Shown: positions 1,274 to 60,502 of the stretch, one piece after another
How positions within the stretch are numbered: the stretch's first letter is position 1
Layout: each line of letters begins with the position of its first letter
From: Candidatus Nomurabacteria bacterium
GTDB lineage: Bacteria; Patescibacteriota; Minisyncoccia; Phycocordibacterales; UBA9973
NCBI GenBank assembly: GCA_943350445.1
Contig: CALRAE010000002.1
Location: forward strand, 2,134 to 66,133
Direction of reading: 5' to 3'
Length of the DNA stretch: 64,000 nt
Position numbers and translations under genes: made by a program
Notes under the pieces: model-generated
Told to the model about the DNA's origin: nothing
Databases searched by the model: none
What the model saw: only the letters and a program-made list of their open reading frames with translations

Positions 1274-4267
1274 ATGAACAACTCCAAGAAAAAATTTGAG
1301 CAGGAGTATAAAAATTTAAACAAAGCACAAAAAGATGCCGTGGATAGTGTCGACGGTCCAGTCATGGTGGTGGCGGGTCCAGGTACTGGCAAGACGCAGA
1401 TCTTGGCATTACGTATAGCAAATATTTTAAACAAAACTGACTCCAAACCAGAAGATATATTGGCTTTGACTTTTACAAATGCTGGGGTTATATCAATGCG
1501 GGAACGTTTGCAGAAAATAATAGGTGATGCGGCATATCGTATAAATATTTTTACATTCCATTCTTTTTGTGAAAATACGATTAAAGAGCTCCCGTTTTAT
1601 TTTAAGAAATTTATTGGAGCGCGTGTATTAAATGATCTCGAGCGTATAGAAATCTTGGAAAAAATTATAAGAGCCAATAATTTTACTGAACTTACCACAT
1701 TTAATGACGAATTTTATTTCTTAAAAGATATTGTTAGAGCGATAAATAATATTAAAAAAGAAGGTTTGTCTCCAAAGCAGTTTGAAGAATCGATTCCAAG
1801 ATGGCGCAACATCTTACTTTCGCACGAAGATGTCTTTTATAAGAGGGATTATGGTGAATACAAAAAGGGTCAAATAAAACCTGCGGAAAAAGAAAAGATA
1901 GAGCACAAAATAGCTAAAGTGAATGAAATGGTCACGATTTTTACTCTCTATCAGAAAGAATTAGATAAGCTGGGAAGGTATGATTTTAGTGATATGATAT
2001 TGTCTGTCTTGGCTGAGTTGGAGGTAAATAAGAATCTTAAAGCTGACCTATCAGAGAAATTTCAGTATTTTTTGGTTGATGAACATCAAGATACGAATAG
2101 TGGACAGAATAGGCTAATTGAACTCTTGACAGACGCTCCACACTTAGAGGGTAAGGCCAATATTTTCGCAGTGGGGGATGAAAAGCAATCTATTTACCGT
2201 TTTCAGGGAGCGAGTCGAGAAACTTTTAGAAATTTTGAAAGTTTGTATAAAGATATTAAACACATAACTCTTTCAGAAAATTATCGTTCCACTCAAAATA
2301 TATTAGATGCAGCGACTTCTCTTATTAAGCATAATACAGAACTTGGTGATACAGAAAGACTAAATTCAAATCAAGAAAAAAATGACAAGGTTATGGTTCG
2401 TGAATTTTCTAATTACAAATTTGAGCTTCTTTTTTTAGCAGAAGATATAAAGAATAAAATCATCAAAGGCGTAAAGCCGAGCGACATAGCTGTGATTTAT
2501 CGGGCACATAAATATGTTTATGATATAAAATCTGTTTTCGATCACAGGCAGATACCTTATACAATTTTATCAAAGGGTAATGTATTGAATGATCCAAATA
2601 TTAGAAACCTAATCACCATTTTACGGGTTGTGCATAATCCGAACGACGAAGAATCTCTAGGTAAGGCCCTTTTTATAAATTTTTTAGGATTAGATGCATA
2701 TGATTCCGTACGCATTTTAGAGAAATTCCGTCGTATTCGTACTGATGGCAAGAAGCACATTTTTGCCATTATTGAGAATAAGAAAAATTTACAGGATACT
2801 GAAGTAGTACATGCAGGAGACTTTATTGCTTTTGCAGAACTTATTAAAAAATTAAAAATTGAATCTACTCAAGGAGATTTTCCGAATTTCTTCAAGTCTT
2901 TTCTGGAGAGTAGTGGTTATCTAAAAGAAATGCTAGGCGCTCTCGACGGGCAAGATCGATTATTAAAAATAGATAAACTTTTTGATGAGATCAAAAAACA
3001 AGCGGGTGAGAGAGCGGATTATGGGTTGTCTAATTTTATCTATTTTGTTGATGCGTTTCTGAAATATAATCTTGATGTTGAATCAAATGCACCAGAAATA
3101 GTTGAAGGTGTAAATTTAATGACTGCTCATGGTTCCAAAGGTCGTGAATTTGAACATGTGTATATCATAAATACCGTCCGGCGTGGCTGGGAGGGTAGTG
3201 GTTCTTCGAGTGCTATCGATCTGCCGATTGAGGAATATGAAGGAGATACTGAAGATGAAAGGCGTCTTTTTTATGTGGCTATAACTCGTGCCAAATATAA
3301 ACTCGATATTTCTTATTCTAATTCAGATAATGATGGTCGCCTCAATGAACCTTCAGAGTTTTTAGCTGAGATTGATGATGCTTATTTAGCTAAAGAAAAT
3401 ATGGTGCAATTTGAAGAAAAGAATTTAGGACAACTTTTTGATTTTATTTCCCCGAATAAGTCCTTAAAATCACTTTATCAAGCAGACTACTTGAGAGAAA
3501 TTTTCTTTCGTCGCACATTAAACGTTTCTGCTTTAAATAATTATCTATCTTGTCCATTAAGGTATTTTTATAAAAATTTATTACAGATTCCTTCGAGTTA
3601 TGAATCCAGACTTGAGTTTGGTAGCTCTATTCATGAATCCCTAGAAGAATTTTTTGCACATTCACGTGATGCAGGGGAAATTTTACCAAAGAAAGAATTA
3701 CTAAAAATATTTAATGAGCTTTTAAATAATAAATCTTTTACTGAAAAAGAAGCAAGTAAATTTAAGACAAGAGGTGAGGAATTGCTTTCCGAGTATTATG
3801 ATGAGCATGCATCAAGTTGGACACATAAAGTAGACCTAGAAAAATATATCAAGAGAGATTTTAAGACTGAACATGGGGAATCTATAACCATTAGTGGCAA
3901 AATAGACAAAATTGAATACTTGGAGGATCTGTTTGGTGGTAAGGTAAATATTATAGATTATAAAACAGGTAGGAGTTTTTCTGAGAAATCTAAAGAAGAA
4001 AAGAAAGATTATGAGAGGCAGATTGTTTTTTACCACCTACTTCTTGATGATTATGACGGTAATTTTAAGATAAATAAAAGCGTTTTAGATTTTGTGGAGA
4101 AAAACAAAAAAGGAAAATTTGAACAGCATTCATTCTTAGTTACAAAAGAAAACTTGGATGAGTTGAAAAGAGAAATAAACCAGTGTATACGAGAAGTCTT
4201 GTCTTTGGAATTTCTTAAAAAGGGTTGCGGGAAGCGTGATTGTGAATGGTGTAGTTTGAGCAAGTAG
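1274..4267 (+). CDS. UvrD/PcrA-family ATP-dependent DNA helicase fused to a C-terminal PD-(D/E)XK (RecB/AddA-like) nuclease domain
   Basis: Walker A VVAGPGTGKTQ. UvrD motifs (LVDEHQDTN, SIYRFQGA, TAHGSKGREF). C-terminal DYKTG...Y..Q..Y nuclease motifs and a terminal Cys cluster CGKRDCEWC. Confidence 0.7.
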   Translation: MNNSKKKFEQEYKNLNKAQKDAVDSVDGPVMVVAGPGTGKTQILALRIANILNKTDSKPEDILALTFTNAGVISMRERLQKIIGDAAYRINIFTFHSFCENTIKELPFYFKKFIGARVLNDLERIEILEKIIRANNFTELTTFNDEFYFLKDIVRAINNIKKEGLSPKQFEESIPRWRNILLSHEDVFYKRDYGEYKKGQIKPAEKEKIEHKIAKVNEMVTIFTLYQKELDKLGRYDFSDMILSVLAELEVNKNLKADLSEKFQYFLVDEHQDTNSGQNRLIELLTDAPHLEGKANIFAVGDEKQSIYRFQGASRETFRNFESLYKDIKHITLSENYRSTQNILDAATSLIKHNTELGDTERLNSNQEKNDKVMVREFSNYKFELLFLAEDIKNKIIKGVKPSDIAVIYRAHKYVYDIKSVFDHRQIPYTILSKGNVLNDPNIRNLITILRVVHNPNDEESLGKALFINFLGLDAYDSVRILEKFRRIRTDGKKHIFAIIENKKNLQDTEVVHAGDFIAFAELIKKLKIESTQGDFPNFFKSFLESSGYLKEMLGALDGQDRLLKIDKLFDEIKKQAGERADYGLSNFIYFVDAFLKYNLDVESNAPEIVEGVNLMTAHGSKGREFEHVYIINTVRRGWEGSGSSSAIDLPIEEYEGDTEDERRLFYVAITRAKYKLDISYSNSDNDGRLNEPSEFLAEIDDAYLAKENMVQFEEKNLGQLFDFISPNKSLKSLYQADYLREIFFRRTLNVSALNNYLSCPLRYFYKNLLQIPSSYESRLEFGSSIHESLEEFFAHSRDAGEILPKKELLKIFNELLNNKSFTEKEASKFKTRGEELLSEYYDEHASSWTHKVDLEKYIKRDFKTEHGESITISGKIDKIEYLEDLFGGKVNIIDYKTGRSFSEKSKEEKKDYERQIVFYHLLLDDYDGNFKINKSVLDFVEKNKKGKFEQHSFLVTKENLDELKREINQCIREVLSLEFLKKGCGKRDCEWCSLSK

Positions 4268-4304
4268 CTCTAGATAATTTTCTGTTTTCTGTTAGTATTT
4301 TACT

Positions 4305-5348
4305 ATGTTCAAGAAAGTTAACACTAAATCCAAAGAAGAGCTTTTGCATGAATTACAGGAAGAAAACTTTCAGCGCAAAACCCTTTCATTTTATCGCTAT
4401 GTGAAGATTTCTGATCCTCTTGCCATGCGAAATAAGCTTTTTGATAAATTTGAAGAATTAAAGTGTTTGGGGAGAATTTACATTGCAGAAGAAGGTATAA
4501 ACGCTCAGATGAATGTGCCTGAACACAACTGGCAGGCTTTTGATAAATTTATACAAAGTATCGAGGAGTTTGCTGGAGTGCTGTACAAAATGGCAGTCGA
4601 AGAAAAGGGTGCATCCAGTTTCATAAAGCTTATAATTAAGGTTCGTCCGAAGATTGTTGCCGATGGACTCAATGATAAAACTTTCAATCCGGCGGATACA
4701 GGGGATTATACTACTGCTAAAGATGTAAATGATATGATCGATCGTGGGGTGACCGTGATAGATATGAGGAATTTTTATGAAGCAATGATTGGCCATTTTG
4801 AGGGTGCAAAAATAATGGATGTGGATACGTTTCGTGAACAACTCGGGAAAGTGCACGATATGTTTACAAAAAAGAAGGATGAGGAAGTTTTACTCTATTG
4901 TACTGGAGGTATTCGTTGTGAAAAAGCTTCTGCTTGGATGAAACACAATGGTTTCAAGAATGTGAAACATATCAAGGGCGGTATTATTGATTATGCACGT
5001 CAAGTGAAAGAGATGGGGTTGCAAAATAAATTTCGTGGCAGGAATTTCGTTTTTGATGAGAGACTTAGTGAAAAGGTTGGGGATGAGGTGATAGCTACTT
5101 GTCAGATTTGTGAAAAACTAAAGTCCGATGATTATATTCATTGTAAAAATTTGCTTTGCCATATTTTATTTATCTGCTGTCAAAATTGTACGAGCAAGTT
5201 GAAGGGTTATTGTTCAGGCTTGTGTATGCTCAGTGAGAAATTCCCAAAGAGATTGAATCAATTTATTTTCCGTAAAAATCTTCAGAAGCACGAAAATTAT
5301 TATAAAAAGAATTATAAGAAACTAAAAATAAATACGGGAGTTAGGTAG
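4305..5348 (+). CDS. trhO: Rhodanese-domain tRNA U34 hydroxylase TrhO/YceA (UPF0176) with a Cys-rich C-terminal tail
   Basis: N-terminal UPF0176 region (LSFYRYVKISDP...GRIYIAEEGINAQ). Rhodanese active-site loop CTGGIRCEKAS. Cys-rich C-terminus. Confidence 0.6.
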   Translation: MFKKVNTKSKEELLHELQEENFQRKTLSFYRYVKISDPLAMRNKLFDKFEELKCLGRIYIAEEGINAQMNVPEHNWQAFDKFIQSIEEFAGVLYKMAVEEKGASSFIKLIIKVRPKIVADGLNDKTFNPADTGDYTTAKDVNDMIDRGVTVIDMRNFYEAMIGHFEGAKIMDVDTFREQLGKVHDMFTKKKDEEVLLYCTGGIRCEKASAWMKHNGFKNVKHIKGGIIDYARQVKEMGLQNKFRGRNFVFDERLSEKVGDEVIATCQICEKLKSDDYIHCKNLLCHILFICCQNCTSKLKGYCSGLCMLSEKFPKRLNQFIFRKNLQKHENYYKKNYKKLKINTGVR

Positions 5349-5380
5349 ATTTTACGGTTTATTTTTGTTATATTACCTAA

Positions 5381-6157
5381 ATGAACAAAGGCACAGAGCA
5401 TCCGCTTTCTATACTGGCAAATCAAGCTTACGATGCTTTTTCAGATATGGGTTTCGAAATTGCGACTGGTCCAGAGTTGGAGAGTGATTGGTATAATTTC
5501 TATGTTTTAAATTTCCCAAAAGATCATCCAGCGCTTGACATGCAGGACACGTTTTGGATTAAAAATAGCAAAGATTTGGCGAAGAATTCTCCCGACTTCG
5601 CCCCCCTAGACAAGAGGACAGGGGACCAACACGACTCCTTGAATTCTTCGCCAAATCTTGTGCTACGGACTCACACTACGACTGTGACTGCGCGATCTCT
5701 AGAGAAGGCTGGTAAAGATGGCAGATTACCTGCAGCTTTCATATCAATTGGAAAAGTTTTCAGAAATGAGGCGACGGATATAACTCATGAGATGCAATTT
5801 TTCCAGATAGATGGAGCGATGGTGGGAGAAAATATTTCTATTGCTGACTTGAAGGGTGTATTGACTAAATTTTATAAAAAAATGCTTGGCGAAGAGATAG
5901 AAATAGAATTTCGTCCAAGCTTTTTCCCTTTTACTGAGCCTTCAATTGAAGTGTTTGCTAAATTTAAAGGGCATTGGCTCGAGATGATGGGTGCAGGAAT
6001 GCTCCATCCAAATGTGTTACGGAATATTGGCCTCGATCCATCTAAGGTGCAAGGTTTCGCTTTTGGTGGAGGACTCGACCGTATCGCCATGATCAAATGG
6101 AATATTTCTGACGTGAGACTTTTTTATCAGGGAGATTTAAGGCTCAACCAGTTTTAA
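5381..6157 (+). CDS. pheS: Phenylalanine--tRNA ligase alpha subunit, compact form, carrying an in-frame ~85-bp palindromic insertion
   Basis: Class II motifs LRTHTT and FRPSFFPFTEPSIEV. 258 aa, no N-terminal extension. Extra ~29 aa between DTFWI and LVLRTHTT coincide with the family A element. Confidence 0.85.
   Translation: MNKGTEHPLSILANQAYDAFSDMGFEIATGPELESDWYNFYVLNFPKDHPALDMQDTFWIKNSKDLAKNSPDFAPLDKRTGDQHDSLNSSPNLVLRTHTTTVTARSLEKAGKDGRLPAAFISIGKVFRNEATDITHEMQFFQIDGAMVGENISIADLKGVLTKFYKKMLGEEIEIEFRPSFFPFTEPSIEVFAKFKGHWLEMMGAGMLHPNVLRNIGLDPSKVQGFAFGGGLDRIAMIKWNISDVRLFYQGDLRLNQF
5573..5657. repeat. Family A palindromic element, copy 1, in frame inside pheS. The core is shared with the mnmA copy and is flanked by a perfect 18-bp inverted repeat AGATTTGGCGAAGAATTC/GAATTCTTCGCCAAATCT
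   Basis: Direct comparison with 59729..59825. The shared core is AATTCTCCC..TTCGCCC..GACAAGAGGACAGGGGACC.ACACG.CTCCTTGAATTCTT. Local GC is far above background. Confidence 0.7.
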
Positions 6158-6158
6158 T

Positions 6159-7976
6159 ATGAAAATTTCTTACAATTGGCTTAAATGGTACGTGCCCGAT
6201 GTTCCAACTGCAGATAAACTCGTAGATATTTTTAATTATCATCTGTGTGAAGTTGAGAGTATTGAAAAAAGAGAAGACGGAGATATAATTCTTGATTTAA
6301 AAATATTACCAAATCGTGCGCATGACCTCCTTTCTCATCAAGGAGTGGCTCGAGAGCTTGCTTCACTTTTGAATATTGCATACGTTGATCCAACGCCGAA
6401 ATATAAAATTCCGGAATCCAAAACAACTAAACTAGAAGTAAAAATTGATACAGGAAACTGCCGTCGTTACATGGGTAGAATAATCAAAAATGTGAAGGTC
6501 GGACCAACACCCGACTGGGTGGTGCAACATTTAGCATCAATAGGTCAAAGAAGTATAAATAACATAGTAGATGCGGCAAACATCGTCATGTTCGACTGTG
6601 GACAGCCAACGCATGCTTTTGATCTAGATAAAGTTCAGGGTGGAGTAGTAGTGAGAGAAGCAAAAGACGGAGAGGCTCTGAACACACTTGATAACAAAGC
6701 AGTAACTTTTAAAAATTCCAATGTCATTATTGCTGATTCTAAAAATACTCTCGCAATTGCTGGAATCAAGGGTGGGAAAATAGCAGAGGTTGATAATAAT
6801 ACAAAAAATATAATTCTAGAATGCGCTAATTTCGACTCGATATCTGTGCGTAAAACTGCTCAAGCCTTAAATATTTTTACAGACGCTCGAAAACGTTTTG
6901 AGAACGATCTATCTCCAGAATTAGCTCCATATGCTATGCGAGAGCTATCTTCTTTAATTTTTGAGATGTGTCCTGAGGCAACTTTTGAAGATATCGTGGA
7001 TATATATCCAAAGAAACAAGAATCAAGAAAGCTTTCTTTTTCTACCGATAGAGTTTCAAAAATTTTGGGTTTGAAAGTTTCCGTAGATGAGATAAAAGAT
7101 ATTTTAAAGAGATATTTGTTTGAGTATGCAGAAAAAGCAGGGAAGTTTGAGATTGTGGTGCTAACAATGCGCCTCGATTTAACTATTGAAGAAGATATGG
7201 CAGAAGAAATAGTCCGAATCCTTGGATATGACAAGGTTAAAGGAGATATTCCAAAGATAAATTTTAAACCGCAGGTAAATAAAACTCGGGCAAAGATAAT
7301 GTGGGCGAGGAATAAACTGCTGGCTGAGGGATATAGCGAGGCCATGACATATGCTTTTTGCAATAAAGGGGAAGTGGAAGTGCAAAATAGCGCTTCAGAC
7401 AAAAAGTTCTTGAGGACTAATCTGTCGGACGGATTAAAAGAAAGCATTAAGCTCAATCAATTGAATGCTCCATTTTTGGGAAGTGATAAAGTTCAAGTTT
7501 TTGAAATTGGCACTGTTTTCAAAAAATCTGGCGAAGAAATGCATGTGGCTTTTGGAGATAAAAAGGGGGTTAAAGAGATGAAGCTAGATGAATTTATTTC
7601 ACCACCTCGCCTTTCAGGCTCTCCTCCTCAGAAAGGAGGAGAGGAATTTCCTCCCCAATTTGGTAAGGAGGGGGCAGGGGGTGGTAATTTCAAAATGTGG
7701 TCTCTATTTCCTTTTATCGCCCGTGATGTGGCTGTGTGGGTGCCGGAGAATATAAAAAGTGCGGAAGTCCTAAAAGTCATAAAAGAAAATACAGGGGATA
7801 TGGTTATCCGCGGGCCGGAACTTTTTGATGAATTCAAGAAAGATGGGAAAGTTTCCTATGCGTTTAGAATGGTTTTCCAGTCGTATGACAGGACTCTGAC
7901 AGATGCAGAAACAAACGAAATAATGGCAAAAATAACTAGTAAGATTAAAGAAAATAACGGTTGGCAAGTGAGGTAG
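6159..7976 (+). CDS. pheT: Phenylalanine--tRNA ligase beta subunit, short form lacking the N-terminal tRNA-binding domain, with an in-frame G/P/E-rich insertion
   Basis: B3/4 and B5 regions (DLTIEEDMAEEIVRILGYDKV). C-terminal FDX-ACB segment (FPFIARDVAVWVPENI). Insert SPPRLSGSPPQKGGEEFPPQFGKEGAGGGNFK coincides with the family B element. Confidence 0.8.
   Translation: MKISYNWLKWYVPDVPTADKLVDIFNYHLCEVESIEKREDGDIILDLKILPNRAHDLLSHQGVARELASLLNIAYVDPTPKYKIPESKTTKLEVKIDTGNCRRYMGRIIKNVKVGPTPDWVVQHLASIGQRSINNIVDAANIVMFDCGQPTHAFDLDKVQGGVVVREAKDGEALNTLDNKAVTFKNSNVIIADSKNTLAIAGIKGGKIAEVDNNTKNIILECANFDSISVRKTAQALNIFTDARKRFENDLSPELAPYAMRELSSLIFEMCPEATFEDIVDIYPKKQESRKLSFSTDRVSKILGLKVSVDEIKDILKRYLFEYAEKAGKFEIVVLTMRLDLTIEEDMAEEIVRILGYDKVKGDIPKINFKPQVNKTRAKIMWARNKLLAEGYSEAMTYAFCNKGEVEVQNSASDKKFLRTNLSDGLKESIKLNQLNAPFLGSDKVQVFEIGTVFKKSGEEMHVAFGDKKGVKEMKLDEFISPPRLSGSPPQKGGEEFPPQFGKEGAGGGNFKMWSLFPFIARDVAVWVPENIKSAEVLKVIKENTGDMVIRGPELFDEFKKDGKVSYAFRMVFQSYDRTLTDAETNEIMAKITSKIKENNGWQVR
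7598..7692. repeat. Family B palindromic element, composite copy, in frame inside pheT. CTCCTCCTcagaaAGGAGGAG plus CCTCCCCaatttggtaAGGAGGGGG, with outer arms TCACCACC / GGGGGTGGTAA
   Basis: Nested perfect palindromes seen directly. The GGGGGTGGTAATT tail is shared with the mnmA copy. Confidence 0.65.
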
Positions 7977-8000
7977 AATTTGCTATAATATCTCTACATT

Positions 8001-10619: not shown

Positions 10620-12392
10620 TTACTTTTTATTCTTGATTTCCTCTAGTAGTTTTTTAACTAAATCTTCTTTAGATATTTGTCCTAGATTTCCATTGCCTGC
10701 CTGCGCAGACAGGTCGCGAGATTCTAGGGTGACTTTATTTGCTTCTATTTCTTTATCGCCAATGACTATCCAGTAGGGGATCTTGTTATTCTTTGCTTCA
10801 CGGACTTTTGTACCGAGGTTGTCTTTTCCATCATCAAATTCTGCTCTTATATTATTCTCATTAAGTAATTCAAAAACTTTCTTGGCGTATTCATTATGAT
10901 TTTCACGTACAGGGATTATTTTTACTTGTACAGGCGAGAGCCACAGGGGGAAGGCACCAGCGTAATGTTCGATAAGTATACCCATAAATCTATCTGGAGA
11001 ACCAATAAGTGCTCGGTGAATCATTACTGGTGTTTGTCTGCTTCCGTCATTGTCTGTATATTCTAGTTCGAATCTATTTGGTTGATTAAAATCAAGTTGA
11101 ATAGTTGAAATTTGCCATTCTCTTTTTAAGGCATCAACTGCCATAATATCTATTTTAGGTCCATAAAATGCAGCTTCACCTTCTGCTGCTTTGTAGTTTA
11201 TTTTTTTAGCATCTAGAAGTTTTTTCATTATTATTTGAGAATTCTCCCAAATTTCATCGGTACCAAGATATTTTTCTTTATTGTCCGGATCTCTTAATGA
11301 CAATCTCATCCAATAATCAATTTTGTATAATTTTAGAGCTTTTTCAATAGCATTTAAAATATTTGAAACTTCATCTTCAATTTGATCTTTGCGACAAAAA
11401 ACATGGCCATCGTCTTGAGCAAAGCAGCGAAGGCGGACTAAGCCAGAAAGTTCCCCAGGTCTTTCATCTCTGTAAAGATTTGCAAAATCAGAATAGCGAA
11501 TAGGTAAATCACGGTAACTCCTTGGTCGTGATGCATATATTTGAGTATGCTGGGGGCAGTTCATTGGTTTTAAGAAAAAATCTTCTTCACTGTATTGTGA
11601 TTGGACGGTGAGCATGTCTTGTTTGTATTTATCGTAATGACCAGATATTTTAAACAATTCTGCTTTGTTGAAATTTGGAGTATGTACTTCTCCAAAACCA
11701 AGTTCATTATTTAGTTCTCTAGAAAATCCTATAATTGCGTTACGAATAGCGTTTCCTTTTGGAGTGAACATTGGCATACCCGTCCCAACTAAATCAGAAA
11801 AAACTAGCAAGTCTTGCTCTTTTGCTATTTTTCTATGGTCTCTTTTCTTTGCTTCCTCTATTTGGATTAGATATGCATCCAACTCTTCTTTAGTATTAAA
11901 AGCCAAACCATAAATGCGTGTAAGCATTTTGTTCTTCTCATCTCCACGCCAGTATGCTCCAGCGATGCGGTCTAGTTTGAAAGATTCTGGGGCTATCTCT
12001 TTGGCTGGATTTTCTAAGTGTCCACCACGACATAGATCTGTGAACCCTCCACATGTATAAGTAGTTATTTTCTCTCCACGTTCGGCGATTTCATTTATGA
12101 GTTCTGCTTTGTATTCATTTTTAAAGAATTTCAGTGCCTCATCTTTGCTGATTTCTTTATGTTCCCATCCTATCCACTTCGGAAGCTTTTTCTTCATTAC
12201 ATCTTCAATTTTTTTTAGATTTGCATCCGTTATCTTTTCACTACAGAAATCAATATCATAATAGAAGCCATTTTCTATGGCTGGACCGAGGGTAAGCTTT
12301 ATTTTGTCGAATTTATAGATTTCCCCGACCGCAGCTGCTAGTAAGTGTGCCAAAGTGTGCCTCATGTTGCCTAGTTTGTCTGTCTTTTCCAT
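10620..12392 (-). CDS. thrS: Threonine--tRNA ligase (no TGS domain; starts at the second additional domain)
   Basis: HTLAHLLAAAV (HxxxH editing-domain motif). Class II core (FCRKDQ, GHYDKYK). C-terminal anticodon-binding domain. Carries an 18-bp palindrome near the 3' end. Confidence 0.85.
   Translation of the reverse strand: MEKTDKLGNMRHTLAHLLAAAVGEIYKFDKIKLTLGPAIENGFYYDIDFCSEKITDANLKKIEDVMKKKLPKWIGWEHKEISKDEALKFFKNEYKAELINEIAERGEKITTYTCGGFTDLCRGGHLENPAKEIAPESFKLDRIAGAYWRGDEKNKMLTRIYGLAFNTKEELDAYLIQIEEAKKRDHRKIAKEQDLLVFSDLVGTGMPMFTPKGNAIRNAIIGFSRELNNELGFGEVHTPNFNKAELFKISGHYDKYKQDMLTVQSQYSEEDFFLKPMNCPQHTQIYASRPRSYRDLPIRYSDFANLYRDERPGELSGLVRLRCFAQDDGHVFCRKDQIEDEVSNILNAIEKALKLYKIDYWMRLSLRDPDNKEKYLGTDEIWENSQIIMKKLLDAKKINYKAAEGEAAFYGPKIDIMAVDALKREWQISTIQLDFNQPNRFELEYTDNDGSRQTPVMIHRALIGSPDRFMGILIEHYAGAFPLWLSPVQVKIIPVRENHNEYAKKVFELLNENNIRAEFDDGKDNLGTKVREAKNNKIPYWIVIGDKEIEANKVTLESRDLSAQAGNGNLGQISKEDLVKKLLEEIKNKK
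10696..10713. repeat. Family D palindrome CCTGCCTGCGCAGaCAGG inside thrS (encodes ..SAQAG..)
   Basis: Near-identical to the perfect 18-bp palindrome at 20044..20061 in rnr. Both are read as (S/P)AQAG on the minus strand. Confidence 0.55.
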
Positions 12393-44329: not shown

Positions 44330-45651
44330 TGAATTTTAAAATAGAAAAAAAATTAAAAAATAGTTTGGGTCGGGTGGGGGTTCTCACAACTTCACACGGA
44401 ATAATACAAACTCCCGCTTTTGTGGCAGTGGGCACCAAGGCTACTATAAAATCCTTAAATCCTGAACAGGTAAAAGATGCTGGCACACAAGTAGTGCTAG
44501 GCAATACCTATCATTTATATTTACAACCCGGAGATGAAATAGTCCGCGGGGCGGGCGGTATCGGTAAATTTATGAATTGGAGTGGGCCGACAATGACAGA
44601 CTCTGGTGGCTTTCAAGTTTTTTCTTTGGGTGCGGCTTATGGTAAACAAATTTCAAAGATAACTAAAATAACTGATCCATCTCTACTTATTCCAGAACGT
44701 TTCGATGATTCTGATGCTCCCAGGTTGGCGAAAATTGGGCAAGATGGGGTTTCTTTTAAATCACACTTGGATGGTTCTATTCATTACATCACTCCAGAGA
44801 AATCAATTCAGATTCAGCATAATTTGGGCGCGGATATAATTTTTGCATTTGACGAATGCACCAGTCCGACAGAAGATTTGAAATATCAAGAAGAAGCCCT
44901 CGAGCGGACACACCGATGGGCAGAGAGGAGTTTAGATGAACACAAGAAATTGGAAGAGTTAAAAAACATGGAAGAAGTGAAAAATAAAGCAGATTCTTCC
45001 TTTTTTGGGTCGCTGTCTACGGGTGCTCCCGTAGCGCTGCCTCTCAGCCCGTCGGCTTGCGAGACACCCAAAAAAGAAAAATCTGCTGACTTTTCACAAG
45101 CGCTATTCGGCATCGTCCAAGGTGGACGAGATGAGGCTCTACGAAAAAAATCAGCAAAGTTTATTTCTAGTCTAGATTTTGATGGGTTTGGTATTGGGGG
45201 TTCATTTGCAAAAGAAGACATGTCGACGGCGGTGAAATGGGTAAATGAAATTTTGCCCGAAGAAAAGCCTCGACACCTCCTCGGCATCGGTGAGCCTGAA
45301 GATTTATTTATGGGGATTGAAAATGGAGTAGATTTATTTGACTGCGTAGCTCCGACTAGACTTGGAAGAAATGGAACTTTGTACACTAAAAATGGGAAAA
45401 TTATAATCATGAATCGACAATTTAGAGAAGATTATTCTCCCATTGAGCGGGATTGTGCCTGCTATTCTTGCCAAAACTATACAAAAGCCTACATTGCGCA
45501 CCTTTTTCACGGCAAAGAAATGCTTGCGGGCACATTGGCTTCGATACATAATTTATATTTTATAGTCAATCTAGTGAAGAAAATAAGGCAGTCAATTTTG
45601 GACGATAATTTCTTCGAATTTAAAGAAGAATTTCTAAAAGAGTATCTATAG
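44329..45651 (+). CDS. tgt: Queuine tRNA-ribosyltransferase with a ~60-aa low-complexity GC-rich insertion
   Basis: TPAFVAVGTKATIKSL. GNTYHLYLQPG. C-terminal Zn site CACYSCQNY..H. Insert at about nt 44940..45110. Confidence 0.85.
   Translation: MNFKIEKKLKNSLGRVGVLTTSHGIIQTPAFVAVGTKATIKSLNPEQVKDAGTQVVLGNTYHLYLQPGDEIVRGAGGIGKFMNWSGPTMTDSGGFQVFSLGAAYGKQISKITKITDPSLLIPERFDDSDAPRLAKIGQDGVSFKSHLDGSIHYITPEKSIQIQHNLGADIIFAFDECTSPTEDLKYQEEALERTHRWAERSLDEHKKLEELKNMEEVKNKADSSFFGSLSTGAPVALPLSPSACETPKKEKSADFSQALFGIVQGGRDEALRKKSAKFISSLDFDGFGIGGSFAKEDMSTAVKWVNEILPEEKPRHLLGIGEPEDLFMGIENGVDLFDCVAPTRLGRNGTLYTKNGKIIIMNRQFREDYSPIERDCACYSCQNYTKAYIAHLFHGKEMLAGTLASIHNLYFIVNLVKKIRQSILDDNFFEFKEEFLKEYL
45008..45070. 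repeat. GC-rich insert inside tgt containing the palindrome CTACGGGtgctCCCGTAG (family C)
   Basis: Seen directly at 45018..45034. Local GC is about 65%, against about 38% background. Confidence 0.5.
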
Positions 45652-45767: not shown

Positions 45768-48700
45768 GTGAAACAAAAAAATAAATTTTTTAGGGCATAT
45801 ATAAAAAGGTTTTCACTTGGACTCTTTGTCTTTGCTTTTTTTGTTTTTCTACCTACTTCTAGTGTATTTGCAGCAGCTACAAAAGACTCATTAATGAATG
45901 CTTTTAAGAGTTATGTAACTGTACTTACTACACCTGTTAACAATCAAGTAGTTACCACCACCCCACCTCCGGCACCCCTCCTTGATCAAGGAGGGGAAAG
46001 GGGTCCTAATCCTGTTTCTATTCCTGTAACACCACCACCCCCTTCGTCAAGCTCAGGGCAGGAAATAGTCTACGTCACACCACAACCTACAATAAACGAA
46101 GCAACCCTTCTTTCTGCTTTAAGAAACCTTCTCTCAAAAAAAGAAATTGCTAACAAATTACGTGGGTCACAAGGAGCACAAGGTATCCAAGGCCTTCAGG
46201 GTCCACAAGGAGCATCAGTTACACCAGCACCAAATCCTATCTCTTATCTACCTGTTCATATCTCATACCCTAATCCTTCTGTAAACTTCTCTGGTGGTGC
46301 TTCTGCAAACATAGCTAATCTATCTTCAAACATTCTCACTGCTACTACTTCTAATATTACTACTTTGAATGTGGCTGGAACTTCTACTCTTGCAGGAACT
46401 CTAAATGTCACTGGTGCCGTCACTCTTCCGTCTTCTGGAAGTTTAACTTCGCCTTTGGTTATTGGTTCTACATCTGCTAATGGCACTTTGACCTTAGAAG
46501 GTAACAACACTACAGGCAATACCGCAACTAATGCAAACTTAATATTCAAGGTTGGTAATAATGCAGCAACTACTGCGATGACTATTTTGAATAATGGCAA
46601 TGTGGGGGTGGGGACGACGACTCCAGGAAGATTTGTCGATTTGTTTTATACGGAGCCAGGTGCAACTCGTGCTTACAATTACCTACGTTTGACTGCTAAT
46701 AGTGCTGTGGGAGCTCATCATGGTACATCTGTCATCGAAGGATTTTATAAGGATAGTGGAAACGGTAATAGTTTTACTCACAGCCAGATCGCATTGGAGG
46801 GGACATCAGTCGGCAATGGTGCTGTAAATTCTATTGGTGAAATCTTGTTTTTGACAAAGTCAGATACAGGTAGCGCGTCAGCATTGCCTACTGAAAAGAT
46901 GCGTGTGACTAGTGATGGAAAATTACTTATTGGAACCAATCGAAATGGTACTGAGGATGGTGATTTGAGTTTCTATGGTATTTCCAATAGACTCATTTCT
47001 ATAGGATCAAATCCAAGTACCAATGTGGAAGGTAAAGACTTAACTATTAGGGCAGGAAATCCTTACCCGTCATCCACCAATCTAACAGGAGGGACTCTCA
47101 ATCTTTCAGGTGGAAAATCATCTGGCACAGGGACATCACAAATTCAATTCCAGACTGCTACCGCAGGTTCTACAGGAAACTCTGTTGTGACCCCAACAAC
47201 TAAAATGACAATTTTAGGTTCCGGCAACGTGGGGATTGGGACGACGAGTCCAGGTCTCCCACTCCAAGTTGTTGGTCACGTAAATGAATTTATTGCAGAT
47301 TTTTTATATAGCTCCTCTGGCTCAGGCGTTGCAGTTGGTGGTGGGGTTAATGGCACAACCGCATGGGTAGCGAGTGATTATCTTGGTGCGACTGAACCAA
47401 AACTACATTTAGCAACCTGGTCTAATCGTGCTAATGCAAATGGTATCACTATTGATACCTCTGGCAACGTCGGGATCGGGACGACGAATCCTAGTATCGG
47501 TTCGTGGGGTAAGGCTTTGACCATTCTTAATAACGGCTTGAACACTACCGCAGCCGCACTTGAAATTGCTTCTTTTGGACTCACAGCAGGAGACGGAGAA
47601 AGCGCTCTTAGTTTTGTAAATGGTGTTGATCTAGGTAATCGTTGGGAGGTGGGACGAATTCAGGCAATTCGTGGTGCTACCGACAATGGTTCAGGTCATA
47701 TTGCGCTATCTACACGAGTGAGTGCAACAGGAGGAGGTTTGGCTGAAGTGATGCGCTTGACTGACGATGGCAAAGTCGGTATCGGCGACACTACTCCAGA
47801 TTATAAATTAGACATAGAGACAGATGTTGCTTCGTATGTTGCCAACTTCTTCAATGATGGCAATCTTGCCACCCGTAGCGGTATCCTTATCCAAGGAGGC
47901 TTAGATGATCACACTGCAGCCGGACCATCCACTCTCATTGGTTTCCAAGATGGTGACGGTGGTGCTGTCGGATCAATCACTTTTGGTTCATCTGCCACAG
48001 CATACAACACTACATCAGACCAAAGATTAAAGAATTTAGTAAACGAAAATACTACTTCATCTCTCAATATCTTAAATCAAATAAAAATTCATGATTTCAC
48101 ATGGAAAGAAGATGCTAACCATAATCTATACACTGGAATCTTCGCTCAAGAGCTCTATGATGTTTATCCTCACGCAATTACTAAACCAATCAATGATGCA
48201 GACAACTGGATGGTGGATTATTCTAAACTCACCCCTGTAATGATCGCATCTATCCAAGAACTAGATCTAAACTTAAATAGTATCGCGGGCACTATCACTC
48301 CACTTGCTGGCTCAGCCAATGAATCTTTCGTGAATGCTTTCTTCGCAAACATTTTTTCCAAGGTTGATAATTGGATGGCGGATCGGGCGAATGGGATAGG
48401 AGATTTCTTTGCAGACAAAGTACATACAAAGCAAATCTGTGTTGCGAAAGCTGATGGCACAGAATTTTGTGCAGATGGTGACCAACTTCAAGCTATGGCA
48501 GGGGGATCAGGAACACCTCCAGCGCCAACCCCTACTCCAGCTCCAGTCCCCGCACCATCATCCGACACCACTCCACCAGTCATCACCCTCACAGGTGAAT
48601 CTACAATAACTTTAAACGTGGGAGACACATATACTGAACAAGGAGCCACAGCCACAGATAATGTAGACACAGGAGTAGCTGTCATAATCAGTGGTTCTGT

Positions 48701-48800
48701 AGATACATCTGTTGCAGGCACATACACTATCACTTATAATGCCACTGACACAGCAGGGAATAATGCGATAGAGGTGGCGAGGAGTGTAGTGGTTCAATAA
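45768..48800 (+). CDS. Large secreted fibre protein (GTG start). Collagen-like G-x-y triplets, repeated NVGIGTT(S/N)P beta-helix-like motifs, a peptidase-S74-type intramolecular chaperone domain, a Pro/Thr linker and a C-terminal Ig-like (DUF5011-type) domain
   Basis: Signal/TM N-terminus. GSQGAQGIQGLQGPQGAS. At least 4 NVGIGTTxP repeats. S-D-x-R-L-K motif TSDQRLKNL followed by ..GIFAQELYDVYPHAI..VDYSKLTPVMIASIQEL. (PT)n linker. C-terminus ITLTGESTITLNVGDTYTEQGATATDNVD..VAGTYTITYNATDTAGN. Confidence 0.6.
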   Translation: MKQKNKFFRAYIKRFSLGLFVFAFFVFLPTSSVFAAATKDSLMNAFKSYVTVLTTPVNNQVVTTTPPPAPLLDQGGERGPNPVSIPVTPPPPSSSSGQEIVYVTPQPTINEATLLSALRNLLSKKEIANKLRGSQGAQGIQGLQGPQGASVTPAPNPISYLPVHISYPNPSVNFSGGASANIANLSSNILTATTSNITTLNVAGTSTLAGTLNVTGAVTLPSSGSLTSPLVIGSTSANGTLTLEGNNTTGNTATNANLIFKVGNNAATTAMTILNNGNVGVGTTTPGRFVDLFYTEPGATRAYNYLRLTANSAVGAHHGTSVIEGFYKDSGNGNSFTHSQIALEGTSVGNGAVNSIGEILFLTKSDTGSASALPTEKMRVTSDGKLLIGTNRNGTEDGDLSFYGISNRLISIGSNPSTNVEGKDLTIRAGNPYPSSTNLTGGTLNLSGGKSSGTGTSQIQFQTATAGSTGNSVVTPTTKMTILGSGNVGIGTTSPGLPLQVVGHVNEFIADFLYSSSGSGVAVGGGVNGTTAWVASDYLGATEPKLHLATWSNRANANGITIDTSGNVGIGTTNPSIGSWGKALTILNNGLNTTAAALEIASFGLTAGDGESALSFVNGVDLGNRWEVGRIQAIRGATDNGSGHIALSTRVSATGGGLAEVMRLTDDGKVGIGDTTPDYKLDIETDVASYVANFFNDGNLATRSGILIQGGLDDHTAAGPSTLIGFQDGDGGAVGSITFGSSATAYNTTSDQRLKNLVNENTTSSLNILNQIKIHDFTWKEDANHNLYTGIFAQELYDVYPHAITKPINDADNWMVDYSKLTPVMIASIQELDLNLNSIAGTITPLAGSANESFVNAFFANIFSKVDNWMADRANGIGDFFADKVHTKQICVAKADGTEFCADGDQLQAMAGGSGTPPAPTPTPAPVPAPSSDTTPPVITLTGESTITLNVGDTYTEQGATATDNVDTGVAVIISGSVDTSVAGTYTITYNATDTAGNNAIEVARSVVVQ
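45951..45999. repeat. Family B element, copy in frame inside the fibre gene (encodes ..TTPPPAPLLDQGGERG..)
   Basis: GTTACCACCaCCCCAcctccggcaCCCCTCCTTGatcaAGGAGGGG, a close match to 45652..45690. Confidence 0.65.
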
Positions 48801-59320: not shown

Positions 59321-60502
59321 GTGATTTTACTAAATCAAATAAATACAATGAAAAGAAAGAAAGTTTTTGTGGGGATGTCAGGGGGTGTTGACTCTGCAGT
59401 TAGTGCAGCACTACTTAAAAAAGATGGATGTGAAGTTATCGGGGTTTTTATCAAGACTTGGCATCCGGACTTTTTAGAGTGCAATGAAGAAGAAGAGCGT
59501 AGGGACGCCATGCGTGTGGCGGCTTTTTTAGATATTCCATTTTTAACTTTTGACTTAGAAGACGTTTACAAAAAAGAAGTGGCGGATTATATGATACGTG
59601 AATATAAAGCAGGGAGGACGCCTAACCCAGATGTGATGTGCAATAAAGAGGTGAAATTTGGTGCCTTTCTTAAAAAAGCTATTTTGATGGGGGCTGATTT
59701 TGTAGCGACAGGGCATTATGCGCAAAATGCAAATGAAAACTTCAAAAATTCTCCCACCTTCGCCCTCGGAGACAAGAGGACAGGGGACCGACACGGCTCC
59801 TTGAATTCTTCAAGTTTTCATTTGCAAAAAGGTGTTGACCCTTCCAAAGACCAAAGTTATTTCCTATGGACACTCACTCAAGAGCAATTAAAGAAAATTT
59901 TGTTTCCTGTCGGGCATTTAAAAAAGACTGAAGTCCGCAAGTTGGCGAAGAAATTTAAATTACCAGTAGCAGAAAAGAAAGATAGTCAGGGGATATGCTT
60001 TTTGGGTGCGGTGGATCTAAAAGAATTCTTAAAGCATTATATTAAGTCGAAACAAGGCGAGGTGCAAAATGAGAAAGGAGAAAAAATTGGTTTTCATGAT
60101 GGTGTAGTTTTTCATACACTCGGCGAACGTCATGGTTTTATTATCACTAAGAAAAGTCCGAATGACGGACCACACTATGTGGTTAGTAAAGATATTGCAA
60201 AAAATATATTAGTAGTTTCTCAGAAATCTCCCCTCCTTGTCGAGGAGGGGGTGGGGGGTGGTAATTCAAAAAAGAATTCCTTATCTATTATTGATACGAA
60301 TTGGATTTCTGAAATTCCAGAACCAAACAAAAATTACACAGCTCAGATACGGTATCATGGTGAATTTTTATCATGTAAAGTAGATTGTGCAACATCGGAT
60401 GTTGCACAATTGGTTTTTAAAAAACCAGTTTTGGTGGCTTCTGGGCAGTCTGTTGTGGCCTACGACGGTGATATTTGTCTTGGTGGTGGGGTTGTTGTAT
60501 GA
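59321..60502 (+). CDS. mnmA: tRNA 2-thiouridine(34) synthase MnmA, carrying two in-frame palindromic insertions
   Basis: PP-loop VGMSGGVDSAVSA. ATGHYA. KDQSYFL. C-terminal beta-barrel. Inserts at 59729..59825 (family A) and 60228..60266 (family B). Confidence 0.85.
   Translation: MILLNQINTMKRKKVFVGMSGGVDSAVSAALLKKDGCEVIGVFIKTWHPDFLECNEEEERRDAMRVAAFLDIPFLTFDLEDVYKKEVADYMIREYKAGRTPNPDVMCNKEVKFGAFLKKAILMGADFVATGHYAQNANENFKNSPTFALGDKRTGDRHGSLNSSSFHLQKGVDPSKDQSYFLWTLTQEQLKKILFPVGHLKKTEVRKLAKKFKLPVAEKKDSQGICFLGAVDLKEFLKHYIKSKQGEVQNEKGEKIGFHDGVVFHTLGERHGFIITKKSPNDGPHYVVSKDIAKNILVVSQKSPLLVEEGVGGGNSKKNSLSIIDTNWISEIPEPNKNYTAQIRYHGEFLSCKVDCATSDVAQLVFKKPVLVASGQSVVAYDGDICLGGGVVV
59729..59825. repeat. Family A palindromic element, copy 2, in frame inside mnmA. 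Same core as the pheS copy, with a copy-specific 23-bp flanking IR (2 mismatches)
   Basis: Flanks GCAAATGAAAACTTcAAaAATTC / GAATTCTTCAAGTTTTCATTTGC. The core matches 5584..5649 with few substitutions. Confidence 0.7.
60228..60266. repeat. Family B element in frame inside mnmA: CTCCCCTCCTTGtcgAGGAGGGGGtGGGGGGTGGTAATTC
   Basis: Perfect palindrome plus the GGGGTGGTAATT tail shared with the pheT copy. Encodes ..LVEEGVGGGNSK.. Confidence 0.65.

Follow-up and report, generated by a model that had tools for sequence, protein, structure and literature searches.

Repetitive extragenic palindromes (REPs) are extragenic repeats of ~20-40 nt with imperfect stems, a conserved 5' GTAG (GT[AG]G) guide and CT cleavage sites, whose mobile form is the inverted doublet (REPIN) and which are lineage-specific (PMC3479197, PMC5581495). 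Rickettsia palindromic elements (RPEs) lie in frame in housekeeping genes, are translated and are compatible with the fold of the host protein, and miniature transposable elements of the inverted-repeat type (MITEs), which are non-autonomous, dispersed and have inverted-repeat termini only, are sometimes intragenic with in-frame fusions (PMC10969869). GC42 and other mitochondrial GC clusters of yeast undergo gain and loss, merger and nesting, carry structure-constrained substitutions and are suspected to be mobilised by an endonuclease (PMC4478555). Here we describe an 18-bp palindrome, CCTGCCTGCGCAGGCAGG, which is found twice inside genes of a Candidatus Nomurabacteria genome, in a window of 64 kb (the whole stretch of DNA analysed, with GC ~0.38, a section of an 81.6-kb metagenome contig), and which is very probably an insertional selfish repeat, whichever enzyme mobilises it. 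The two sites, their 17/18 identity and their location in minus-strand genes had been pointed out in an earlier note under the name family D, and all three were confirmed by our scan of the window and by the open reading frame (ORF) and Pfam identities of the hosts. The copies and their host genes are as follows.

20044-20061, inside rnr: perfect 18-bp palindrome CCTGCCTGCGCAGGCAGG, translated LPAQAG
10696-10713, inside thrS: 17/18 copy, CCTGCCTGCGCAGACAGG on the plus strand, translated LSAQAG
10620-12392, minus strand: thrS, threonyl-tRNA synthetase (ThrRS), 590 aa, Pfam tRNA_SAD, tRNA-synt_2b and HGTP_anticodon
19287-21260 (likely start 21239), minus strand: rnr, RNase R, Pfam OB_RNB, CSD2, RNB and S1

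Both copies share one codon phase, xxC CTG YCT GCG CAG GCA GGy, and the AQAG-containing peptide that the earlier note had read in each of them is correct; its context is D-LSAQAG-N in ThrRS and G-LPAQAG-A in RNase R. The single substitution of the thrS copy changes CCT to TCT on the coding strand and P to S in the peptide. The thrS insert is located in the anticodon-binding domain, and the rnr insert in the RNB domain, within a Lys-rich loop of variable length across homologues. As a DNA hairpin the 18-mer has a 7-bp stem and folds at -6.5 kcal/mol, a stability which the thrS substitution halves (-6.5 to -3.3 kcal/mol), and no frame of the palindrome contains a stop codon. By composition ~5e-8 exact copies are expected in 64 kb, and 100 dinucleotide shuffles of the window gave 0 matches. 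In the window the copies stand singly, 9.3 kb from each other, no third copy at up to 3 mismatches was found elsewhere in the 64 kb, and the density of the 18-mer is ~1 per 30 kb.

To place the two copies relative to their host genes we aligned ThrRS with 60 relatives and RNase R with more than 100 homologues. In ThrRS the six residues correspond to a clean gap between ...VTLESRD and xGxLGQ (ESRD and NGNLGQ in the window), the homologues being mostly 584 aa long or near it and a 94%-identical relative being exactly 6 aa shorter; in RNase R a clean 6-aa insertion was likewise observed against the 100+ homologues. At the codon level the sites read GA[C CTG TCT GCG CAG GCA GG]C AAT in thrS and AAA GG[C CTG CCT GCG CAG GCA GG]T GCT in rnr, and the boundaries may slide by 0 or +1 in thrS and by 0, -1 or -2 in rnr. 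Since these slides agree solely on the boundaries of the palindrome, the inserted unit is the 18-bp palindrome itself, without target duplication. No target-site duplication was seen when filled and empty thrS and rnr sites were compared codon by codon, and no direct repeats were found in the flanks of the family overall; microhomology at the two targets does not exceed 2 nt, and neither target holds a pre-existing palindrome. An apparent 28-nt palindrome at thrS was set aside, as most of it is the element, to which 6 nt coding for conserved residues are added. The relatives of the window's ThrRS and RNase R are all Patescibacteria of the Paceibacteria/Nomurabacteria type. The closest of them (P0002 and P0122/L129, both from run SRR24908203) is without both inserts and the next outgroups are likewise, so both copies were gained in the lineage of the window. 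These exact 18-bp insertions relative to orthologues, together with the dispersal of the same 18-mer in more than 100 genomes, bear out the suggestion of the earlier note that such palindromes could be further mini-insertion elements. At the same loop position the ThrRS of relative P0012 has a different insert, of five residues (ISEGE).

The dispersal was established by scanning a 596-Gb collection, with one genome per species, for the exact 18-mer, which was found in at least 120 stretches from ~105 assemblies. The case of only two copies without any relatives, under which the earlier note would have given up its claim, is thus clearly not what was found. Counts of sites, hosts, flanks and reading phases, here and below, are among the matches listed. 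Seventy-one matches are labelled Patescibacteria and come from every class (Paceibacteria, Microgenomates, WWE3, Saccharibacteria, Dojkabacteria, Gottesman-, Woese-, Kaiser- and Uhrbacteria, and others), and 15 are Bacteroidota, including the isolate Litoribacter ruber KCTC 22899; the isolate Rosettibacter primus also carries the 18-mer. Taxon labels of TPA_asm entries are partly unreliable, and ten low-GC labels of 'Gammaproteobacteria/Pseudomonadales' are untrustworthy. A contig titled 'uncultured Candidatus Saccharibacteria', CAZKJE010000001.1 (L105/L127), matches the Paceibacteria-type window in gene order, ThrRS and RNase R. Loci with GC <0.52 hold 102 of the sites, where fewer than ~1-3 are expected in the whole collection at that composition, and the 11 high-GC matches are compatible with chance. 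Other carriers have several copies per genome, and within loci single copies predominate. A purine (R) at -1 and a pyrimidine (Y) at +1 were noticed in 161 of 204 symmetrised flanks (p ~1e-17), at non-coding sites also, and beyond ±1 the flanks are unrelated to one another.

Most carriers are metagenome assemblies and a palindromic 18-mer resembles a linker, which is what a sequencing or assembly artefact (adapter or linker) would look like; chance resemblance belongs to the same explanation. We give it practically no credence, because zero chance copies are expected, mutated and synonymously diverged copies stand at orthologous sites, an identical ThrRS protein is encoded on 6 independently assembled contigs, the two isolate genomes named above carry the 18-mer and its reading phase is biased (p = 4e-12, see below). 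Several other readings of the family were also rejected. An extended palindrome or target-derived inverted repeats can be dismissed, as complementarity of the flanks is at chance and just 4 of 125 sites are extended. A viral vector was considered since 25 viral contigs carry the 18-mer, but most of these are 58-67% GC, where chance matches are expected. The two copies bracketing 2.2 kb in L035 do not form one element, as the intervening genes are housekeeping genes. In 1.3 Mb of loci no longer element with 18-mer termini was found except in L072, and Rfam models, run on 18 carrier loci, matched tRNAs and one SAM riboswitch only, the palindrome lying under no RNA family. In the literature searched we found the 18-mer sequence unmentioned, and nothing on palindromic in-frame inserts or REP-associated tyrosine transposases (RAYTs) in Patescibacteria.

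Furthermore, we analyzed how the element is read inside genes. Open stretches of at least 450 nt contain 78 of the 125 sites, and in these the three phases are very unequally used, with LPAQAG in 56 (72%), PACAGR in 14 and CLRRQ in 8 (p = 4e-12). This bias, for which the earlier note had proposed to look, indicates that the element is translated and filtered by selection, and two marker peptides for translation of the inserts, DLSAQAGNGNLGQISK and GLPAQAGAK, can be searched in metaproteomes. The residue before LPAQAG is Asp in 17, Gly in 10 and Asn in 7 cases (34 of 44), all typical turn residues, a preference which arises because the amino acid of the NR|Y codon split by the insertion stays the same. 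In the AlphaFold2 model of the window's ThrRS, residues 561-568 form a loop with pLDDT <50 between strands 553-558 and 569-574, so the insert is predicted to be the disordered tip of a beta-hairpin in the anticodon-binding domain. LPAQAG was also noticed at two further positions among the RNase R homologues. We conclude that intragenic copies survive mainly in the LPAQAG phase, after Asp, Gly or Asn, and at surface loops. Removal at the RNA level, as a mini-intron, had been prompted by copies adjacent to tRNA-Gln genes and was rejected: there the palindrome lies in partial 5' duplicates of the tRNA while the functional gene is free of it, and the phase bias shows translation.

The 18-mer could also be a selected DNA or RNA signal, for example a hairpin in mRNA, a site bound by a conserved dimeric protein or, these bacteria being naturally competent, a signal for DNA uptake. 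Its two-fold symmetry is typical of dimer sites, its arms are conserved around a variable centre, and it is perfectly conserved across deep lineages while adjacent silent sites are near saturation. We nevertheless consider such a signal very unlikely, because copies decay without loss of the host gene, the closest relatives are copy-free and the relative positions of the sites are spread, without regard to operons or to the starts and ends of genes; the phase bias, too, reflects a constraint on the protein and not on placement. Uptake signals have a high, even density (~1 per kb) and arise by substitution rather than by 18-bp insertion, whereas the present element arises by insertion, decays and, at ~1 per 30 kb, stands far below the known ones. 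The same scatter, free decay, low density and phase bias, which speak for copies that are tolerated rather than placed, leave the other proposal of the earlier note, a protein-binding, restriction-modification or nucleoid-protein motif tolerated in coding sequence, without support.

At thrS the insert occupies the identical nucleotide in four lineages (the window, P0011, P0025 and P0043), and in the tree these carriers fall into separate clades, four in all, every one of them with sisters that lack the insert. One ancient insertion for each site, inherited vertically, lost exactly many times and by now immobile, would explain why several lineages have the same nucleotide occupied in thrS, rnr, nusB-NUDIX or tRNA-Gln fragments, and hairpins do favour slippage deletion. 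We regard it as highly improbable. The thrS tree would require at least 10 exact losses with only a 1-nt flanking repeat to mediate them, and the closest relative and the outgroups are without both window copies. In addition, all 6 third-codon positions of the insert are identical in the three carriers with an intact element, whereas ~50% is expected, third positions at conserved thrS codons elsewhere being 47-56% identical (p ~3e-4 under one ancient neutral insertion). The P0043 copy, TTACCCGCCGTGGCGGGC, with the peptide LPAVAG, shows mainly synonymous differences and is an old copy which now evolves like ordinary coding sequence. Similarly, the nusB-NUDIX copy of L124 has two mismatches where L127 has a perfect copy at the same site, and the rnr site is occupied in four other lineages by a 21-nt relative, CCTGCCTGCCGGTAGGCAGGG, with the peptide LPAGRQG. 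Recent transfer of thrS alleles between lineages was ruled out by the diverged silent sites in the flanks. The pattern at these sites is that of insertions which recur and then decay, rather than that of a functional site under conservation.

For these observations our best explanation is that family D is a palindromic insertion element of miniature size, non-autonomous and of REP-like kind, which moves as a single-stranded DNA hairpin by means of a trans-acting HUH/Y1 enzyme; in this full form we give the statement an even chance of being right. Insertion places exactly 18 bp, preferably at R^Y junctions, without duplication and without flanking sequence of its own. The mobile form would be a single-stranded hairpin with a 7-bp stem and a GCGC loop, cut at its feet and rejoined by a structure-specific enzyme supplied in trans, of which the likeliest would be a RAYT-like HUH/Y1 transposase, a type common in Patescibacteria, as in REP/REPIN systems. 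HUH/Y1 chemistry leaves no duplication or footprint and would therefore explain the clean empty sites. Inside genes the element is translated, with selection keeping one phase and loop sites, and gains recur, in different lineages even at one and the same nucleotide, with point mutations eroding the copies afterwards. It would probably serve no host function, its effect being the expansion of a loop by six residues.

The candidate enzyme was identified by clustering all-against-all the ORFs from ~270 loci. The sole recurrent non-housekeeping family across loci was Y1_Tnp (PF01797), whose proteins carry the HUH motif LMPNHFHLL. Upstream of Y1_Tnp genes, at a distance of 150-196 nt, L031 and L033 have the 18-mer, and L267 has an imperfect 20-mer relative, CCTGCCTGCCGGTAGGCAGG, at ~190 nt; in L072, 60 nt separate a canonical RAYT from a hairpin that shares the CCTGCCTGC arms. 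Compared with random placement, the adjacency of Y1_Tnp genes and palindromes has p ~0.004. RAYT-like homologues number 1260, mostly from Patescibacteria, and one of their genes follows a thrS that itself carries the element:

L126 6249-6976: RAYT-like Y1 transposase gene, directly after thrS of P0043, a Paceibacteria relative

This gene has a 19-bp palindrome of its own, CCACAGGTCWGACCTGTGG, on both sides, and a third copy of it in frame within the gene (peptide SHRSDLW), right after the HUH motif, which shows that REP/RAYT-type systems with repeats entering coding sequence exist in the group. We infer from this evidence that a RAYT-like enzyme mobilises the element. The RAYT gene of L072 holds, in frame, a 28-bp palindrome beginning GTAG, GTAGGGGCGAACGGCCGTTCGCCCCTAC. 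No LPAQAG-type peptide was found among 120 homologues of the RAYT proteins.

Several points weigh against the REP-like explanation. The only NCBIfam match of the Y1_Tnp proteins is REP_Tyr_transpos at 27-78 bits, under the cut-off of 80. The 64-kb window has no Y1_Tnp or GIY-YIG gene, and the 18-mer adjoins none of four further loci with RAYT homologues (L275-L283). The adjacency itself is confounded, as compact genomes gather dispensable DNA in few permissive spots. A unit of 18 nt is too short to contain the guide and cleavage sequences used by known HUH transposases, and REP-RAYT pairs are normally lineage-specific whereas the 18-mer is identical across whole classes. The 5' GTAG guide, the imperfect stem and the extragenic position of REPs are missing here. 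Finally, the weak R^Y preference alone is insufficient to account for four hits on one thrS nucleotide.

The same selfish hairpin may instead be mobilised by a small GIY-YIG nuclease, the short palindromes being what is left, as an 'empty' derivative or footprint, when the arms of a longer element with a GIY-YIG ORF in its loop are joined. In L072 a type I restriction R-subunit-like (hsdR-like) ORF of 1170 aa (3955-7985) holds both the 18-mer and a hairpin of 39 nt whose outer arms, CCTGCCTGC/GCAGGCAGG, are the same, and those arms also bracket, as inverted repeats, a GIY-YIG domain that lies in frame in the ORF. Besides, in L029, L040, L184 and L239 a GIY-YIG ORF lies between an intact tRNA gene and its partial 5' duplicate with the palindrome at the D-loop position, and in 5 of the 11 loci holding both a GIY-YIG ORF and a palindrome the two are at most 200 nt apart (p ~1e-4 vs random placement). 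On the other hand, the bracketed arrangement is seen in L072 alone, and no other long element with such termini occurs in the 1.3 Mb of loci. Small GIY-YIG ORFs are common beside tRNA genes in these genomes, so that permissive DNA confounds this adjacency as well, and the nuclease gene was not found in the window. GIY-YIG enzymes are not known as inserters of short hairpins. On balance we consider mobilisation by a GIY-YIG nuclease unlikely. The hsdR-like ORF of L072 has at least 4 palindrome-derived peptides. The partial 5' duplicates (~26 nt) of tRNA-Gln and tRNA-Ser genes, located upstream of the intact tRNA, carry the 18-mer, the 20-mer or an imperfect variant at the D-loop position; in L184 two of them stand in tandem, and across loci a small GIY-YIG ORF is often found between duplicate and tRNA. 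The loci with tRNA duplicates are:

L029 1725-2105
L039 3530-4013
L044 360-487
L040 6731-6914
L112
L184 4361-4871
L239

The 20-mer CCTGCCTGCCGGTAGGCAGG extends the picture to a related palindrome. It has a G.T wobble and is hence asymmetric, and the same odd base recurs in at least 120 metagenome stretches; among the matches listed its loci have a median GC of 0.44, are mostly non-coding and have unrelated flanks, with G preferred on both sides. The same imperfection at unrelated sites argues for copying from a master. About ten copies occupy precisely the loop between the halves of a perfect CCTGCCTGCC|GGCAGGCAGG palindrome, and others are centred in CCCCTCTCCCC...GGGAGAGGG hairpins, which resemble another GC-rich insert family of the window; this nesting in hairpin tips suggests that single-stranded loops are preferred targets. 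The 20-mer contains GTAG, but within the hairpin.

Such exact and frequent nesting in the tips of other hairpins is also what an enzyme-free process could produce, namely template switching or gene conversion between GC-rich hairpins, possibly with GC-biased repair in AT-rich genomes that lack mismatch repair. The absence of target duplication, the variants with common arms and differing centres, and a window without a transposase gene all agree with it. But the thrS and rnr targets had no prior palindrome and at most 2 nt of microhomology, the same 18 bases in more than 100 genomes of different classes need a sequence-specific agent or horizontal spread, and the R^Y preference holds at non-coding sites too, so we think this process quite unlikely to be the source of the element.

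Taking the REP-like explanation as the preferred one, we compared the element with the described systems. It works most like REP/REPIN-RAYT, yet departs from it in several defining features. Both consist of short GC-rich hairpin repeats that are dispersed in many copies and do not duplicate the target, and the REP transposase is a single-copy gene acting in trans, as the Y1_Tnp genes that adjoin copies in some carriers could be. The present element, in contrast, is often intragenic and translated, both window copies being within essential genes; it has a perfect stem and neither GTAG nor a CT cleavage site at the hairpin foot, its flanks being random beyond R(-1)/Y(+1), and it occurs as singlets. 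With RPEs it shares a palindromic repeat in frame in unrelated housekeeping genes of a reduced, AT-rich genome, translated and compatible with the fold. RPEs, however, are ~100-150 bp long, encode 30-50 residues and are confined to Rickettsia, while the element here has 18 bp and 6 residues, is about eight times shorter, has no sequence relationship to them and occurs in Patescibacteria and other phyla.

With the mitochondrial GC clusters it has in common the sporadic GC-rich palindromes in an AT-rich compact genome, the rapid gain and loss, the merging and nesting of units, structure-constrained substitutions and a suspected role of endonucleases in mobilisation, and the association with tRNA genes and GIY-YIG ORFs recalls fungal cases; 18-nt PstI palindromes are reported to flank tRNA genes in Neurospora (Yin et al. 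1981, cited in PMC4478555). The fungal clusters differ in being organellar, 30-60 nt long and mostly intergenic, with a putative AG target duplication, whereas here we have no duplication, a bacterial chromosome (in free-living or episymbiotic carriers) and another sequence. Like MITEs the element is non-autonomous, consists of an inverted repeat only, is dispersed and is sometimes intragenic in frame. MITEs, however, have 50-500 bp, target-site duplications and ends that match insertion sequences (IS) of DDE type, none of which was seen for the 18-mer, and as for an autonomous partner, an ORF bracketed by the same arms was seen in L072 only among the 1.3 Mb of loci, with a GIY-YIG domain. With no duplication, and no IS ends found in these loci, the 18-mer element is not a MITE. 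It is kin to the known REP-like and RPE-like selfish palindromes, and it stands out by its minimal size, its exact in-frame behaviour, its recurrence at identical sites and its spread across the superphylum.

A bolder claim, which we make tentatively and think doubtful, is that the perfect 18-bp palindrome is a complete, self-sufficient transposition substrate, excised and inserted precisely at the feet of the hairpin, leaving neither duplication nor footprint, by a trans-acting nuclease (RAYT-like HUH or GIY-YIG) which targets single-stranded DNA loops and R^Y junctions and repeatedly hits one nucleotide of an essential gene superphylum-wide. If true, it would be the smallest mobile DNA unit known and would act generally as a source of loop insertions, six residues long, in the proteins of Patescibacteria, and if the RAYT or the GIY-YIG link holds, it would define a minimal substrate for hairpin-directed DNA transposition. 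Proteins of Patescibacteria are noted for unexplained small insertions, and a selfish hairpin by which essential enzymes acquire LPAQAG in their loops is one concrete source of these at the DNA level. The notion of selfish DNA inside genes, best known from the 100-150-bp elements of Rickettsia, is extended here to a unit of 18 bp and to a vast radiation of uncultured bacteria. Being simple to search for, the 18-mer can also serve as a marker with which to follow gain and loss, horizontal spread and recombination in unculturable organisms, and in practice such inserts can mislead alignments, phylogenies and the assembly of these genomes.

The earlier note had linked family D to other GC-rich palindromic inserts of the window, which is reasonable, as several other families are present and nest in one another elsewhere. 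They are:

5571-5659 (pheS) and 59744-59811 (ORF 59321-60502): 68-nt GC-rich element, in frame, the copies 88% identical
7651-7695 (pheT), 60228-60272 (ORF 59321-60502) and 45975-45996 (ORF 45768-48800): GC-rich hairpin family CTCCCC..GGAGGGGG(N)GGGGGTGGTAATT and perfect 22-bp palindrome CCCCTCCTTGATCAAGGAGGGG, all inside ORFs
45008-45070: GC-rich insert in tgt with CTACGGGtgctCCCGTAG, the family C of the earlier note, present as described there

The CCCCTCTCCCC/GGGAGAGGG hairpins that hold nested 20-mers outside the window are similar to the CTCCCC family. The 68-nt element has the ends AAGAATTC...GAATTCTT, and at both of its sites it stands between the arms of an inverted repeat, 11-16 nt long and specific to the locus, AAGATTTGGCG/CGCCAAATCTT and TGCAAATGAAAACTT/AAGTTTTCATTTGCA, which looks like an inverted target duplication or like insertion into the centre of a pre-existing palindrome. 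Outside the window, a perfect 16-bp palindrome, TCCGCCAGCTGGCGGA, was noticed in five otherwise unrelated loci (L068, L084, L099, L107 and L114) from metagenome-assembled genomes of Patescibacteria and Bacteroidota. In Bacteroidota (Saprospiraceae MAG-185, Litoribacter ruber and Sphingobacteriales bin43) the 18-mer forms the hairpin core of longer conserved intergenic repeats, for example ...ACACGGA[pal]TTTGTCAAAG and GGATG[pal]CCGCTACCGTCGTTAACGC, which have no Rfam match and are found in the following loci:

L006, L045 and L057: Bacteroidota long repeats
L014, L035, L073, L079, L085 and L104: Bacteroidota long repeats

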